From Octopus vulgaris (taxonomy: Eukaryota), in the NCBI GenBank assembly GCA_951406725.2, contig OX597827.1, positions 25,482,001-25,546,000 of the forward strand: a stretch of 64,000 nt of DNA. The letters run 5' to 3'. Shown piece after piece: positions 5,605-63,775 of this stretch. The position numbers were made by a program, and so were the translations under genes. Below the pieces are notes generated by a model. The model had not been told where the DNA came from. It made no database searches and saw only the letters and a program-made list of their open reading frames with translations. Numbering within the stretch: the stretch's first letter is position 1; each line of letters opens with the position of its first letter.

Positions 5605-7636
5605 TATTTCATAAATTTGTCATATAGACAGTACAAAGAGCTTTGCGGGCTGGACAAATACATTAATGAATGGAAATGAAATATAATGAATAAATGAGAG
5701 ACGAAACCCAACACCCGCCGATTGGATTTTTTTCGAAAACACATTTTCTTTTTTTTTTTTAAATCAATATGAGGTTTCGAACCTTATACAAGGAGGAGGC
5801 ACTAAAACCTCTTACTTAACGTGTTTTCTTTTTTTTTTCTTTCTTGAAGCAAAAAATTGAGGTTATAAACCATTACAAAATAATCCAATAAGGGTCTTTC
5901 ACCTCCTACTCTTCGATATATCCACTGATATATTCATCATTATCTTCAATGCCGCTTGAGTTCCTGTATCCCGCAATTTCCCATGCCACACTCATGTAGG
6001 ACATGTAAGTCGTGTAAGGGCCACCCGGCCATATGCGACACTCCTCCCCAAATCCTTTAAGCCTTTCCCACAAGGGAAACCTTATGACCTCCACAGCTAT
6101 CTGCGGAGGCCATTCGGGATCCCGTGTGAAGGGCATATCTACTGTTTTTTTATGTTCTTCTACTATTTTTCCACCTCCCCGCCCTTGTAGAAAAAGATAA
6201 TTAATTGATCATCTTTAAGGGTGGGGGTTGTTTCTTCCACAGTGGGTGGCACAACTTCGGGACATGCAGTCGGCACATCATCTCCCCGCTGAGATGACCC
6301 GTTCTTCTTCCTTCTTTTTTCTTTTCTTCCTGGCTTCGGGAGAGTGGAGCTCTTCCGCTTTGTCCGGAGACTCTTCCCCGCCTTCCGAAGCCTTAGGTTC
6401 CTTCGGCGGGCAACTATTGTTGCCCGCCTTCTTCCTTTTTAATCCTTTTTGAGTTGAGGAGGCTGAAGCCTCCTCGACCACATCCACCTCTCCCTTTGAG
6501 CAAGTAGGGGAGGTGGCATCTAGTGACTGTTCCAGGACCTTACCATGGCCCTGGGGGCAGTTCCTTTTAATGTGGCCTGGCTGCAAGCACGAGTGACACT
6601 TTGGGGGACGTCCCTCAAGTATCACCAGATACCTGCAGCCAGCCATTTTCAAGAAATCTGGAAAAACTAGTTCTGTTGTGGCCGATGGGGCCCACAGGGT
6701 CAAAATCGCTTTTGACCCTTCCCAATCGACCGCCGGCAATATTCTTACATTTAAGAGCCTGGGCCCGCCATCCCCCGTCCCCGTCGGATGGTATATTCAA
6801 TCCAATCCACTTCGGTGCCCGGGGGGGAGCCCACATACCTAGACTCGAATTAATTTTCTTTAACAATATGACGGGAGAAACAGAATTTCCTTGCCTTCTA
6901 AAGGCTGACTCGCAAACTGGCGAGCCTTTTCCCCGTTGTCAAACAGCAACCATACGGTTGCATGTTTGACACCACGGGATATATATTTTACAGAGGACAA
7001 ATGTTCTTTAAGTTCATTTTTTATGACTTGTTTTGGGAAGACGGTGATGGAATTAAGAACTTTAGAATACGTTCTAAGTACCATCGTCTTCTCCTCCGTA
7101 TCTTTTAACCATTGCTTAGACGGGTTAATTTCCCACCCTAAGACAGAGTTTTTCTTTTTAAGTTCCTTCACCGCCATGTCAAAAAACAGTTCAAAAATTA
7201 GTTCAAAAGACAGTCTGCCAAAAAGTTAAACCGAATAAAAATTAAACAAAAATGAAAGAGGAGGGGAGTAAACTGAAATTAAACTAATGAAAAGAATGAA
7301 CCAAATTTAGAAAGAAAGAAACAATAGAAGGGAAAAGTAAAAGAAAAACCTCACAAACAGCACAGACGGGTATCTTTTGTATAATACTCCAAAAAGGTAA
7401 TCCAAATGGCTTATTCTTATTTTTCTGGCGAGATACGCCCACTAGAATTCACAAGAAGAATTTTCAAAAAAATTCTCATTTCACCGTTACGGTGTTGAGA
7501 ACCCATTATTTTGCTCGCTATAGCGAGCCATAATTGACATTTTTTCTTTTTGTTATTTTTTTCTATTCGCGGAACTGAAACTCAGATCTACTAACTGTAA
7601 CAGTCCAGACAAACTAGTGTTGCATTCTGGATAAAC
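5605..7636 (-). mobile_element. ORF1-only non-autonomous non-LTR retroelement (L1/Tx1-like ORF1), ~2.03 kb
   Basis: Flanked by the direct repeat AAGCTACTT (5596-5604, 7637-7645), which splits one SINE. It holds a frameshifted ORF with a CCHC knuckle, has AATAAA at the 3' junction and shows no RT or endonuclease motifs. Confidence 0.7.
6278..7177 (-). pseudogene. Frameshifted ORF1/gag-like nucleic-acid-binding protein with a CX2CX4HX4C zinc knuckle
   Basis: Three consecutive overlapping ORFs (7177-6860, 6866-6615, 6739-6278). The ATG lies in a GACATGG context. Motif EGRPPKCHSCLQPGHIKRNCP is followed by a basic low-complexity tail. An RRM-like fold upstream is inference. Confidence 0.75.
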
Positions 7637-7680: not shown

Positions 7681-7751
7681 TAGCAGAGCGTAGTTTCGAT
7701 CTACGGACATCTGCGTTATGGGCCCAGCACGTTTCCACTGCACCACACTGC

Positions 7752-7752
<1 letters not shown>
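7681..7752 (-). tRNA. tRNA-iMet: Initiator tRNA-Met (CAT), probably a pseudogene
   Basis: The 72-nt minus strand AGCAGTGTGGTGCAGTGGAAACGTGCTGGGCCCATAACGCAGATGTCCGTAGATCGAAACTACGCTCTGCTA has the A1:U72 pair and the ATCGAAA T-loop diagnostic of eukaryotic initiators. The acceptor, D and anticodon stems each carry one mismatch, and no oligo-T terminator follows. Confidence 0.88.
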
Positions 7753-8254: not shown

Positions 8255-8287
<33 letters not shown>

Positions 8288-8590
8288 AGAAATATTGAAT
8301 TTCTAAATCTCTCGTAGAGACATGTACGGTGGTGGGGCGATAGAATGGTTGTATACTGTGAATCTAACAAGAATGTGACAGTAGGGGGTACACCACTGCT
8401 TTATAGCCCTAGGAAGCATCGAACGCCTCCTGATAGCTTTGACACATTTTTTCCCTGTGTCCTTATATACATATACGAAGGGGAGACGTATATGTATATA
8501 AGAACAGAGGGAAAAATGTGTCAAAGCTATCAGGAGGCGTTCGATGCTTCCTAGAGCTATACAATTACGAAGTCGAGGCAAATATCACCA

Positions 8591-8670
8591 GCTGACCGGT
8601 GTCTGCTACTCTAGGCCGATGAAGGACAACGATCCTGAAACACGGTGTCCCTAGATGCAGTTCCGGCAGC
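8591..8670 (+). ncRNA. Type I hammerhead ribozyme, family A copy 1
   Basis: TCTAGG-CCGATGA-AGGA caacga TCCT-GAAA-CAC g GTG-TC^-CCTAGA. Stem I extends by CTGC/GCAG and GCTG(a)CCGG/CCGGCAGC. Predicted cut is after C8649. The core has a U4C variant. Confidence 0.8.
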
Positions 8671-8955
8671 CGGGGGTGTTTGTCTCCCCTTCGTATATGT
8701 ATATAAGGACACAGGGAAAAAATGTGTCAAAGCTATCAGGAGGCGTTCGATGGTTCCTAGGGCTATACAGCGGTGGTGTACCCCCTACCGTCACGTTCTT
8801 GTTAGATTGACAGTATTCAACCATTCTATCGCCCCACCACCATACATGTCTCTACGAGAGATTTAGAAATTCAATATTTCTTATTTTGATAATCAGTGAA
8901 TAAACTTCACTGAATATACATATATACAATTACGAAGTCGAAGCAAATATCACCA

Positions 8956-9035
8956 GCTGACCGGTGTCTGCTACTCTAGGCCGATGAAGGACAACGATCC
9001 TGAAACACGGTGTCCCTAGAGGCAGTTCCGGCAGC
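8956..9035 (+). ncRNA. Type I hammerhead ribozyme, family A copy 2
   Basis: Same core as copy 1, with a perfect stem I CTCTAGG/CCTAGAG. Predicted cut is after C9014. Confidence 0.82.
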
Positions 9036-9280
9036 CGGGGGTGTTTGTCTCCCCTTCGTATATGTATATAAGGACACAGGGAAAAAATGTGTCGAAGCTA
9101 TCAGGAGGCGTTCGATGGTTCCTAGGGCTATACAGCGGTGGTGTACCCCCTACTGTCACGTTCTTGTTAGATTGACAGTATACAACCATTCTATATAGAT
9201 ATATATACACATATATGTATATATATGTAAAATTTCGAAGAAAATTAAAATTTATCTTATATAGTAGCATTTTCAAACTT

Positions 9281-22849: not shown

Positions 22850-23082
22850 CTAGACGCATATATATGTTGGTACGACTTTCGTCCCCATTGCAGTGCCTGA
22901 TATTTGTAGATAATATAGATCATCAAAGAATAAGTTGTTGTTTTCTAGTTCTATCTGTAAACCTTCAAGTACAAATTCTTTTGAGACTCTCTCCTGAATT
23001 CTTTGTGGGTTTTTGTTTATCCAGAATTCCACTCCTTCTACTCCATATATATGGGGAATAATTGTGTAGAGACAATTTACGT
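22850..23082 (-). pseudogene. Penelope-like reverse transcriptase fragment
   Basis: LYTIIPH..G..FW..LENNNLFFDDLYYLQISGTAMGTKVVPTY covers RT motifs A to B' of Penelope-like elements. Confidence 0.88.
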
Positions 23083-23274
23083 ATGTGTGTATATGTATAT
23101 ATATATATATATATATATACATATATGACGGGCTTTTTAGTTTCTGTCTACCAAATCCACTTACACGGTTTTGGTCGGCCCAGTGCTATAGTAGAAAACA
23201 CTTGCCGAGGTGTTACGCGCTGGGAGTGAAACCAATACCATGGGTATATATATGTATAACTAACTAACTTCACA

Positions 23275-28505: not shown

Positions 28506-28630
28506 CAACATCACAATCAAGGAACGGCCATAATAGGCCATTCACCCACTAGAAATAACAGCCAAAAGCTTTAACCGCAAAATAACATTAATTCCGTAAA
28601 CCAGGAGAAAATTGAAAAACTTTTACCCTG

Positions 28631-28739
28631 TATTTCTTAGACGATGCACCGTTTCATCTACCGTTTAATGGTAAACTAACCTGATTAAATTAAATCAAGC
28701 CAATCCACCATAGGCCCTTAGACTCATCAGTAAGAAATA
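28631..28739 (-). ncRNA. Type I hammerhead ribozyme with a long stem II insertion, family B copy 1
   Basis: TATTTCTTA-CTGATGA-GTCTA[insert with a 19-bp hairpin]TAGAT-GAAA-CGGTGCATCG-TC^-TAAGAAATA. The core is canonical, stem I is a perfect 9 bp, and the GUC site is at 28640. Confidence 0.88.
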
Positions 28740-29134
28740 GCCAAGTCGGAACAGATATTTTTCACGAGGCATTCCTCTTGCTACCTCGGCAATATCTGAC
28801 CTAAAATTTTCAAATCGTCGCACTCGCGCCAAATTTATCGGCAGCAAATAAATATAAGCCACCGATTCCATTACGGAACTAACCAGAAAATTCATAATTA
28901 ATCAATATAGGGTGGCAAAAAAAAAAAAAAAAAAATTTTTGTAGAATTCTTTTGCCACCAGCGGCCTAGTAGGAAAAAATTAAATAGTCATAAACTATTT
29001 TTACGTTCAACATCACAATCAAGGAACGGCCATAATAGGCCATTCACCCACTAGAAATAACAGCCAAAAGCTTTAACCGCAAAATAACATTAATTCCGTA
29101 AACCAGGAGAAAATTGAAAAACTTTTACCCTGTA

Positions 29135-29241
29135 ATTTCTTAGACGATGCACCGTTTCATCTACCGTTTAATGGTAAACTAACCTGATTAAATTAAATCA
29201 AGCCAATCCACCATAGGCCCTTAGACTCATCAGTAAGAAAT
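29135..29241 (-). ncRNA. Type I hammerhead ribozyme, family B copy 2
   Basis: Core and stems identical to copy 1 (8-bp stem I). The GUC site is at 29143. Confidence 0.88.
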
Positions 29242-30010
29242 AGCCAAGTCGGAACAGATATTTTTCACGAGGCATTCCTCTTGCTACCTCGGCAATATCT
29301 GACCTAAAATTTTCAAATCGTCACACTCGCGCCAAATTTATCGGCAGCAAATGGCAAAAGAATTCTACAAAAATTTTTTTTTTTTTGCCACCCTATATTG
29401 ATTAATTATGAATTTTCTGGTTAGTTCCGTAATGGAATCGGTGGCTTATATTTATTTGCTGCCGATAAATTTGGCGCGAGTGCGACGATTTGAAAATTTT
29501 AGGTCAGATATTGCCGAGGTAGCAAGAGGAATGCCTCGTGAAAAATATCTGTTCCGACTTGGCTATTTCTTACTGATGAGTCTAAGGGCCTATGGTGGAT
29601 TCTTGATTTAATATATATATTATAGATGAAACGGTATATTACAGGGTAAAAGTTTTCAATTTTCTCTGGTTTACGGAATTAATGTATATATGGGTGAATG
29701 GCCTATTATGGCCGTTCCTGATTGTGATGTTGAACGTAAAAATATTTATATATTTTTCCTATATGGTGCATTCTACAAAATACATACATTACATACATAC
29801 ATACATACATATATATATATGGGTGTTTCTTTGTAATCATATTTGCCTCCCACCACTGCTCGACAACCACTCTTGATGTGTTTACGGCTAGTAACTTAAA
29901 AGTTCGGCGGCAAAAGTGCCTGATTGAGAAAATCCCGGTTTTAAAGAAATAATTACTGGCATCGATTCATTCCGGTAAAAATATTTCAAGGGTCCAATGA
30001 CTGCAACAAG

Positions 30011-61487: not shown

Positions 61488-62780
61488 CAAGGGGCGTTCA
61501 ATAAGTAATGCCCCTGACCCACTTCCCATAGCAGTAGAGCAACGAAACTTGGCACAGTTATTAGTCTTTTTCTACATAGGAACCACCCAGAGTTACGCGT
61601 TTCTCCCATCGTTTGATGCATCGCTGGAGACCGTTTTTGTAGAAGACCCCAGCTTGGTCCTCCAACCACGACGTGACTTTAGAAATCAAGGCTGCATCAT
61701 CTGTGAAATGCTTTCCTTTCAAAAACAACTTCATGGCTGGGAAAAGGTGAAAATCAGAGGGTGCAAGGTCAGGAGCGTAGGGGGGATGGGGGAGGAGTTC
61801 ATAGCAGCACGCCTGTGCTTCTGATCTGGCGACACGCGAGTTGTGGACCGGAGTGTTGTCCTGCAGGAGGAGGATGCCTTTGCTGATCTTGCCCCACCTC
61901 TTGATTTTGATAGCTTCTCTTAATTTCCTCAAAAGTGAAGCATAATAGGCTCCTGTAATTGTGGTACCCTTTGCCAGGAAATCTGTCATCACTACTCCGT
62001 CCTGGTCCCAGAAGACTGTGAGCATGACCTTACCAGCGGAGGGCTTTACCCTTGCATTCTTTGGAGGAGGTGAGTCACGGTGCTTCCACTGCATTGACTG
62101 GGCTTTGGTCTCTGAATCATAGTGATGGACCCAGGTTTCATCCTGTGTAATCAGTCTTTTGAAAAATTTTGACTCATCTTCTTGGCACATCTCCAAATTC
62201 ATCCTCGAGCACTCGACGCGTTCTTGCTTCTGGAAAGGTGTGAGCAACCTGAGAATCCATCTGGCAGACACCTTTTGCATATGCAAATGGTCATGAATGA
62301 TAGTTTCCACAGACCCGGTACTAATCTTGACCTCATGAGCTATTTGGCGAATAGTTATGCATCGATCTTCCAAAATGGCAGCCTCAACTTGACGCACAGA
62401 TGCCTCATCAATGGCAGAAGGGGGGTGACCAGATCTGGGAGCTGTTTCCACAGAGTTCCGACCATGTTTGAATTCACGATGCCAGCGTTTTACAAGGTCA
62501 TATGATGGGGCATCATCACCATCAGTTACTTTCATTTCATCAAAAGTCTCCTGTGGTGTGCTTCCTTTCAAATACAAAAATCGGATCACTGCTCGACACT
62601 CAACAGGCTCCGTTTCACACTTGACTCAGTTCAAACACCTGTAAATCAGAAACCACAATTAGCTCAGAGCTGTAATTTGCCACTTAATCTATAGAGATAT
62701 ACATAATTGCACATGCAAACTTTCAGCTAGATCAAACAACTGCAAGTGGGTCAGAGGCATTACTTATTGAACGTCCCTCG
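61488..62780 (-). mobile_element. Full-length mariner transposon (1293 bp) with a TA target-site duplication
   Basis: ~37-bp TIRs C(A/G)AGGG(G/A)CGTTCAATAAGTAATGCC(C/T)CTGACCCACTT, with TA at 61486-87 and 62781-82, inside a (CATA)n tract. Confidence 0.96.
61561..62613 (-). CDS. Mariner DD34D transposase, open frame but the start codon reads ACG
   Basis: TQDETWVH / LQDNTPVH / YAPDLAPSDFHLF, with exactly 34 residues between the last two Asp. No internal stops. An in-frame ACG at 62613 sits where the ATG is expected. Confidence 0.9.
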   Translation of the reverse strand, partial: TEPVECRAVIRFLYLKGSTPQETFDEMKVTDGDDAPSYDLVKRWHREFKHGRNSVETAPRSGHPPSAIDEASVRQVEAAILEDRCITIRQIAHEVKISTGSVETIIHDHLHMQKVSARWILRLLTPFQKQERVECSRMNLEMCQEDESKFFKRLITQDETWVHHYDSETKAQSMQWKHRDSPPPKNARVKPSAGKVMLTVFWDQDGVVMTDFLAKGTTITGAYYASLLRKLREAIKIKRWGKISKGILLLQDNTPVHNSRVARSEAQACCYELLPHPPYAPDLAPSDFHLFPAMKLFLKGKHFTDDAALISKVTSWLEDQAGVFYKNGLQRCIKRWEKRVTLGGSYVEKD

Positions 62781-62807
62781 TACATACATACATATATATA
62801 TATATCG

Positions 62808-63775
62808 GAACTCCACCGATTCAATTTTGACATCGTATCTCTCAGTGAAACCCGGAGAGCCGGAGAAGGCCGGCTGAGAGAAGAAGGCGGTCAATACACC
62901 TTTTTCTGGAAAGGTTACGATCCCGACCACCAACGGATCCATGGTGTGGGTATTGCAATACGAAACACCATCCTATCGAAACAGACAGAGCAGCCTATTG
63001 GAATGTCCGCACGACTCATGACCCTCCGAATCCAGCTTGTCAAAAGTCAGCACGCAACTATCATCAGTGCGTATGCTCCCATCCTTGACGCGGAGGATTT
63101 AGTCAAGGAGGAGTTTTACAGCCAACTCGACAGCATTCTCTCTACCGTCCCAAAGGACGACAAGATCATTCTCCTGGGAGATTTCAACGCCAGAGTTGGG
63201 AGAGATCGTGAACTCTGGACAGGAACCATCGGAAAGGAAGGAGTGGGAAAAGTCAATGCCAATGGAACTCTGCTACTCAACAAATGTGCTGAACATAACC
63301 TGGTGATAACCAACACCCTTTTTCGCCAGAAGAATCGATATAAGGTCTCACGGCAGCATCCAAGATCGAAACAATGGCATCTCATCGACTATATCATCGT
63401 GAGATCCCGAGACCAGCAAGATGTGTTGCTCACCAGAGCCGCCACTGGAGCAGATGAGTGCTGGACAGATCATCGCCTCATCGCCTCCACCATGAAAATC
63501 AAACTCCGACCAAAAGTGAAGTATCACAGCAAGGAAAGCAGAGTAAAGAAATTCAACATCGAAGCACTGCAAGACCCAAAAACTCGTGTTGCTCTACAGG
63601 TCAATCATCAAAATTAGACTCCAAACCATCTCGTCGAAGAAAATTGGAACCAGCTGAAAGAAACCATCATCACCGCTTGCGAAGAAACCATCGGCCGCAA
63701 GAAAAGGAAACACCAGGACTGGTTCAACGACAATGATGAAGCTCTCAAAGAACTGGTCGACCAAAGGAGGAGGTA
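62808..63775 (+). pseudogene. RTE-clade LINE fragment: APE endonuclease domain
   Basis: DIVSLSETR..YTFFWKG..GVGIAI..RLM..IISAYAP..LLGDFNARVG..NTLF..HPRSKQWHLIDYIIV..TDHRLI. A frameshift occurs near 63610 and the fragment ends before the RT. Confidence 0.93.

Follow-up and report, generated by a model that had tools for sequence, protein, structure and literature searches.

The window analysed here is a stretch of 64 kb (64,000 nt) of the Octopus vulgaris genome (contig OX597827.1, positions 25,482,001 to 25,546,000), which is AT-rich and microsatellite-dense and contains SINE-like dispersed repeats, a mariner transposase and LINE fragments. Between two TA-rich flanks lies an element of 8285-9194, composed of an inverted arm, a short piece and a direct arm of 1.73 periods (8563-9194). 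The direct arm carries two type I hammerhead motifs, with cores CCGAUGA at 8616 and 8981, whose predicted cuts after 8649 and 9014 are one 365-nt period apart. The original prediction, made for 8559..9195, had recognised the tandem, which is real, and its coordinates did not take in the inverted arm or the extra short piece. The features are as follows.

8260..8284, no strand: (TA)n microsatellite, left target flank; the period-2 tandem repeat spans 8260-8287, and the exact match of the arm to the unit ends at 8285.
8285..8487, minus strand: inverted arm, 5'-truncated and without hammerhead; corresponds to unit 8682-8884 (96% over 203 nt, 8 differences).
8487..8563, plus strand: short piece; corresponds to unit 8692-8769 (93.6% over 78 nt), with a 6-nt microhomology to unit 1.
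8558..8922, plus strand: unit 1, a full 365-nt period without protein-length ORF.
8603..8660, plus strand: hammerhead copy 1, type I; C for U at core position 4 (U4C) at 8617, predicted cut after 8649.
8650..9014, plus strand: predicted monomer RNA between both cuts; 365 nt, 44% GC, strongly self-paired.
8830..8884, plus strand: tail-like segment between two inferred reverse transcription start sites; the arms end at the equivalents of 8829 and 8884, and its first half is AC-rich.
8923..9194, plus strand: unit 2, partial (272 nt), ending in TA-rich DNA.
8968..9025, plus strand: hammerhead copy 2, type I, with the parts of copy 1 shifted by 365; U4C at 8982, predicted cut after 9014.
9195..9230, no strand: TA-rich right target flank, in which a target-site duplication is indistinguishable.

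The full and the partial unit are 98.2% identical over 272 nt (8558-8829 versus 8923-9194, 5 differences), and the predicted monomer folds to -118.7 kcal/mol (z -5.0), a stability reached by 0 of 100 shuffled sequences. Non-LTR retrozymes are recognised as tandem non-coding units of 150-450 bp with less than 50% GC and one hammerhead per unit; all of these traits were found, the hammerhead being a core variant. A coding role for the 365-nt unit was considered and rejected, as it has no protein-length ORF and the longest ATG ORF wholly within the element encodes 69 aa. No reverse transcriptase (RT)/GIY-YIG ORF between pseudo-LTRs was found in or beside the element, which is not an autonomous Penelope-like element (PLE).

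We scanned both strands of the 64-kb window with a descriptor allowing C or U at core position 4, and recovered four hammerheads: the 8616/8981 pair and a second pair on the minus strand (28730/29233). The same descriptor returned a mean of 0.05 matches per window across 40 composition-matched random windows. Rfam hammerhead models gave no match at the gathering threshold, nor at E up to 10 on 161 nt, and Rfam over the element returned chance matches only, to hairpin and microsatellite models. When compared to the canonical type I core (C3 U4 G5 A6 N7 G8 A9 / G12 A13 A14 A15.1 / U16.1 H17), both copies fail at position 4, where each has C, and fit the consensus at every other position. The two GUC-cut hammerheads proposed to bound a single 365-nt repeat unit were confirmed at their positions, as was the replacement of CUGAUGA by CCGAUGA in both cores.

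The motif has the type I architecture described in PMC4209133, with a 6-bp helix I, a 4-bp helix II and a short self-complementary helix III. In copy 1, helix I (8610-8615/8650-8655) leads into the core (8616-8622), helix II (8623-8626/8633-8636) is capped by the hexaloop CAACGA, and GAA (8637-8639) is followed by the nine bases of the helix III region (8640-8648) and by C17 at 8649. Outside helix I lies an internal loop (UAC at 8607-8609 opposite U at 8656), and loop II has A at its 3' end. In the Schistosoma hammerhead, the contact between loop 1 and loop 2 involves a 5' U and an extrahelical pyrimidine of loop 1 and the 3' A of loop 2 (PMC2632901), and all three residues have counterparts in copy 1 and in the wider family, a statement of sequence comparison only. 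In copy 2, a locus-private G at 9021 replaces the contact U (T at 9021 makes up approximately 100% of depth in all four sequencing runs described below). The residues for the contact of stem I with loop II that had been suggested earlier are kept in copy 1 and in the family, while copy 2 has lost one of them; because of this loss, the locus may be partly dead. A stem III with a 1-nt loop, as had been drawn before, cannot close: the monomer would form 3 bp with a 3-nt loop, and the dimer 8 bp round a G.G mismatch, 8 of the 9 positions pairing between two copies.

Part of the unit is present in 20 of 24 public runs surveyed (10 studies, four organism codes); none of the 24 is on record as RNA, a circumstance that carries no information on expression. 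We mapped contigs of four runs to one period plus flank (8830-9260) at 80% likeness, and in each of them contigs were mapped (1765, 877, 721 and 26), with many variants and differing flanks. The unit belongs to a many-copy family, for which contig counts do not give copy number. Contigs of all four runs bridge 8890-8960, so that head-to-tail units without ORF are a family-wide arrangement. C4 is the majority letter of the family: no variant at 8982 was present among the variant rows listed, 40 of 56, and, because rows of 11% are among these, a majority T could hardly be missing, although a minor T is possible, as 2 to 5 C>T places per run fall outside the listed rows. The original prediction had asked whether C4 was the family consensus or a private inactivating change; with C the majority in the contigs of four runs, U4C is not a private lesion. 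Neither metagenome contigs nor viral contigs contained the exact 19-nt core pattern (0 matches in each), which at that sensitivity gives no sign of a viral or microbial source.

Among the same 40 of 56 rows, none of the 39 substitution places lies within the 40 positions of the core and helices (P 0.002-0.008), in a test that was devised after inspection of the table and with two other stretches of approximately 40 nt equally free of listed change. Helix III does vary in the family, by a 1-nt deletion at 9009 and by loose contig ends at 9007-9010, and by inspection all of the variants observed are self-complementary. Changes listed at 8958, 9033 and 9036 retain or improve predicted pairs of distal helix I. 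We also considered whether C4 is actively kept against CpG decay and rejected this argument: only 4 of 16 CpG sites have a listed change, and an unchanged 8982 is uninformative.

The same core change occurs in a natural viroid variant, with considerably lower activity in vitro that is enough in vivo (cited in Perreault et al. 2011, PMC3088659); there it is a rare variant of a replicating RNA, whereas here it is the majority state of a genomic repeat family. In folding predictions, C3-C4-G5 pairs with the middle of helix III at a probability of 0.99, as compared to 0.73 for a U4 control; this short helix, made stronger by C4, would be a trap for the core of the monomer. The active single fold is predicted at +6.1 kcal/mol with C4 and +4.1 with U4, likewise in the circle, energies that leave out tertiary contacts and kinetics. 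For a transcript of 8558-9070, the double hammerhead is predicted at +2.0 kcal/mol versus +8.8 for the single form, while in longer transcripts the double form would reach +6.8 (to 9194) and +8.0 (from 8487) versus +6.1. As the double form is predicted to be cheap up to 9070 and not up to 9194, dimer cleavage would be favoured only in a limited interval during transcription. Cleavage by dimers of PLE-linked hammerheads is reviewed in PMC6765202 and PMC4209133. On balance, and with some reserve, we expect the ribozyme to cleave at a useful rate.

An ordinary invertebrate retrozyme with good monomer cleavage would account for the same motifs if the loop-loop contact offset U4C and the trap were an effect of the folding model. 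The 3 bp open to helix III in the monomer exceed the 1-2 bp of dimer-dependent motifs (PMC4209133), the contact residues appear intact, coral and mussel retrozymes are described as cleaving as monomers (Cervera and de la Pena), and the trap, being predicted with U4 too, is not specific to C4. We nonetheless consider good monomer cleavage improbable, given that self-complementarity of the helix III variants is what would be expected of dimers, and that C4 is predicted to add 1-4 kcal/mol to the active fold, for the double form and the isolated monomer.

Insertions of PLEs are described as partial tandems that have an inverted, 5'-truncated copy beside them, usually a tail of 30-40 bp at one end, and a bias towards microsatellites (Craig et al. 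10.1101/2021.04.23.441226). Purified PLE protein was shown to nick both strands of AT-rich DNA and to extend them, with two internal start sites on the RNA that are as far apart as the tail is long (Frangieh et al., PMC11167929). The octopus element displays this signature: a partial tandem and an adjacent inverted, 5'-truncated copy in a microsatellite and AT-rich target. The hammerhead-sense 3' ends of both arms face outward into TA-rich DNA and lie 55 nt apart on the unit, that of the inverted arm being longer than the right end by these 55 nt, as compared to the published tail of 30-40 nt; A+C reaches 0.7 at 8810-8860. The inverted arm and the offset ends had been overlooked in the original prediction; they imply that reverse transcription began within the unit (equivalents of 8829 and about 8884) rather than at the ribozyme cut. 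Start sites inside the unit point to PLE enzymes, and we regard PLE-type mobilisation as highly probable.

The long end recurs in the family. Loose contig ends into TA- or AT-rich DNA were found at 8881 (14 contigs), 8884 (13 and 1), 8886 (1) and 8891 (7); these five rows, of the 24 of 271 listed, comprise 36 contigs at 8881-8891, where the left arm ends. No loose end at 9014/9015 is present among the same 24 of 271 rows, and for the short end (8829) the corresponding stretch, 9189-9260, was skipped as repeat in the contig mapping. In all four runs, summed contig depth declines from the region of the 3' end towards the hammerhead and beyond it, reaching its minimum at 8920-8934 without a step at the cut site. 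This slope fits 3' priming and 5' truncation, but we did not count it, since contig depth is no basis for ranking the parts.

A G at 8753/9118, common to units 1 and 2, makes up less than 1% of depth in every run, and at this place the short piece and the inverted arm have the family letter C. One template read twice is the simplest explanation of the shared G; a homogenised tandem donor or later gene conversion could also produce it. The short piece itself is likely to be the product of a template switch or an internal deletion. We also considered plain local duplication and rejected it, because removing one period deletes 8830-8927: a shorter ancestor would be without this segment, and the direct arm did not grow from a shorter local copy.

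A second hammerhead repeat, unrelated in sequence, is present on the minus strand at 28506-29780, with a 502-nt period and about 1.7 periods. It contains two canonical-core type I hammerheads (cores 29233 and 28730, minus strand) with a 68-nt helix II domain; its units are 99.4% alike and its monomer has a z of -5.3. An inverted arm on the plus strand has many small deletions, from decay or from an effect of hairpin sequencing, the arm ends are about 70 nt apart, and the left end lies in (TA)n. With two unrelated families of the same layout, PLE-type junction evidence is repeated within one window.

This recurrence bears on whether either insertion could have arisen without retrotransposition, by satellite-like local duplication with a chance foldback or as a palindrome assembly artefact. 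Palindromes are difficult to assemble, the small deletions of the second inverted arm would fit such an origin, and the junction with the right flank is covered by none of the four runs, that part having been skipped as repeat. However, the arms of the first element differ at family-polymorphic and private places, unlike a foldback artefact, the layout is the same in two unrelated families, and family contigs end where the left arm ends. We regard such an origin as very improbable.

Taken together, this analysis suggests that the locus holds a variant non-LTR retrozyme whose ribozyme is predicted to be attenuated and to favour the dimer, and that PLE enzymes mobilise it by starting within the unit and copying beyond a single period, a reading to which we assign a probability of roughly 0.55. 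The class proposed originally, a retrozyme-like unit with dimer-capable hammerheads and a 365-nt monomer, fits every test run, and its cleavage and circularisation remain predictions. The U4C hammerhead would slowly cut tandem transcripts, for the most part in its double form, and the 365-nt monomers released would close into circles, which PLE enzymes would then probably copy into TA repeats. C4 would pair with helix III sequence and keep the single hammerhead mostly off, protecting the circle, and strand swapping between two copies in the nascent transcript would free the core. At the target, the PLE endonuclease would nick both strands of (TA)n, and each nick would prime reverse transcription from an internal site of the unit, either near 8829 or near 8884. 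One cDNA would halt after 203 nt to give the inverted arm, and the other would run back through both cut sites to give the direct arm.

Because the cDNA crossed both predicted cut sites, its template would be circular or an uncleaved multimer rather than a linear monomer left by cutting. A circle and an uncleaved tandem transcript would give an identical insertion, and we hold the chances of a circular template to be even. Divergent RT-PCR alone cannot separate the two, because the sequence of a ligated junction is that of the tandem DNA.

A mini-element mobilised by PLEs, with a silent or dispensable hammerhead, would require no circles at all: uncut tandem transcripts would be the templates, and the motif would be kept as a fold or a protein-binding site. 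The reduced in vitro activity of U4C and the predicted trap in the core agree with this, as do an insertion that reads through both cut sites and the absence of 9014/9015 from the loose ends listed. The PLE studied in vitro could do without its hammerhead, with mainly unprocessed RNA as template and no RNA reads ending at the hammerhead cut site (Frangieh et al., PMC11167929), and 8 of 9 Xenopus retrozyme dimers showed no cleavage in vitro (Li, Clavereau and Pollet 2026, 10.64898/2026.07.22.740005). On the other hand, no substitution is listed for the core, for helix I or II or for the distal contact residues, while 39 other places vary, and the locus-private G shared by both units fits one template read twice. 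We consider a silent hammerhead possible, and on the unlikely side.

The variant retrozyme with an attenuated ribozyme also has a stronger form, in which C4 is a fixed switch: the core would stay locked as long as the RNA is a circular monomer and would be active solely in the double hammerhead of nascent tandem transcripts, and a Penelope-type RT would start at two internal sites, roll round the circle and write two-armed insertions into TA repeats. We find this form doubtful; if true, the junctions would be direct genomic evidence of the enzymes that move animal retrozymes.

Metazoan non-LTR retrozymes include mussel units of 350-390 bp, and their circles have been demonstrated (Cervera and de la Pena 2020, PMC7229834), whereas those of the U4C unit are predicted. 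The unit resembles these retrozymes in being a non-coding 365-nt tandem unit with GC below 50%, one type I hammerhead per unit, a self-paired monomer and many copies. It differs from them in the family-wide C at core position 4, and in retaining the loop-loop contact residues that are mostly absent from the mussel motifs. Inverted arms and offset ends are without mention in the main text of that report (0 matches for 'inverted'). As core position 4 fails the consensus and cleavage is predicted only, the unit is a variant and not a canonical member of the class.

The likeness to GIY-YIG PLEs, as these are described in 10.1101/2021.04.23.441226, PMC11167929 and PMC4209133, comprises the partial tandem, the inverted 5'-truncated copy, the extension at one end, the (TA)n/AT-rich target and the hammerhead in the repeat. 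In contrast to these elements, the unit has no ORF, its hammerhead is of full canonical size where that of PLEs is minimal, and its offset is 55 nt rather than 30-40; no autonomous PLE with the terminal sequence of the unit was found. PLEs have been proposed as the movers of animal retrozymes from co-occurrence and homology (Li et al. 10.64898/2026.07.22.740005; Cervera and de la Pena). With the vertebrate retrozymes of the former report, the octopus family shares a proposed reliance on PLE enzymes and the occurrence of dimers and dispersed monomers. The vertebrate case rests on co-occurrence and pLTR homology, with tandems attributed to local amplification, whereas here the insertion junctions bear the signature and the tandem would have been made at insertion.

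Hammerheads have been noted in a squid genome annotation. In the literature available to us we found no report of a family-wide U4C retrozyme, nor of PLE-type inverted arms or tails on retrozymes; such cores may already be listed in 2017 work on PLE hammerhead variants, in the first description of U4C or in the supplements to Li et al. and to Perreault et al. The class is known, and the family-wide U4C and the PLE-type insertion signature are the new aspects. Two unrelated ORF-less hammerhead repeats with PLE-type junctions in one window name likely start sites, and purified PLE protein could now be used to test the link to PLEs. Where U4C is the state of a family, as here, whole families escape Rfam models and any search that requires CUGANGA; such a family is also a natural experiment for asking if selection favours slow or gated cleavage in retroelements that form circles.

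A reverse transcriptase fragment of 78 aa is present on the minus strand at 22853-23086, beside a TA repeat. Its best match is 51% to a Mytilus RT-domain protein (2 matches among 30 candidates), it also matches RT-fragment clusters in a protein atlas, and its relatives score weakly against RVT_1. We take its motifs to be PLE-like; no profile assigned the fragment to PLEs and no link to the U4C unit was found.

Within the unit, 8738-8758 is predicted to fold into a hairpin whose 7-nt loop is similar to a tRNA T-loop or a Pol III B box, a similarity within chance as a motif, as is the B-box-like 9-mer near 8745. The shared G at 8753/9118 breaks one pair of this hairpin that the family letter keeps, and we regard the hairpin as a lead to a putative promoter of the unit.

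Variant shares at 8903 and 9131 differ sharply between two runs of one organism code (9131 T>A, 0.4% in run X1 and 84% in run X7), which would reflect subfamilies, populations or biased expression. Run X7 also has rows of equal depth over 9078-9181 (28.1, taken as one contig), with T>C at 8 of 29 T; the changes include 4 of 4 minus-strand UAG sites and 0 of 6 sites with a 5' G (about 0.003 by hand). ADAR enzymes favour UAG and avoid a 5' G, and the pattern looks like A-to-I hyper-editing of an antisense transcript, on the guess that X7 is RNA; such editing would fit double-stranded RNA from inverted arms.

Elsewhere in the window, ARAGORN called no tRNA across the 64 kb; a tRNA-like match on the minus strand at 7681-7752 (Rfam 31.8 bits, not an ARAGORN call), beside a long TA repeat, is probably a SINE head or a pseudogene. 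The remaining frames are a zinc-knuckle frame at 6278-6796 (minus strand), a 354-aa mariner-type transposase frame at 61561-62625 (minus strand) and a LINE-type endonuclease frame at 62688-63617 (plus strand).
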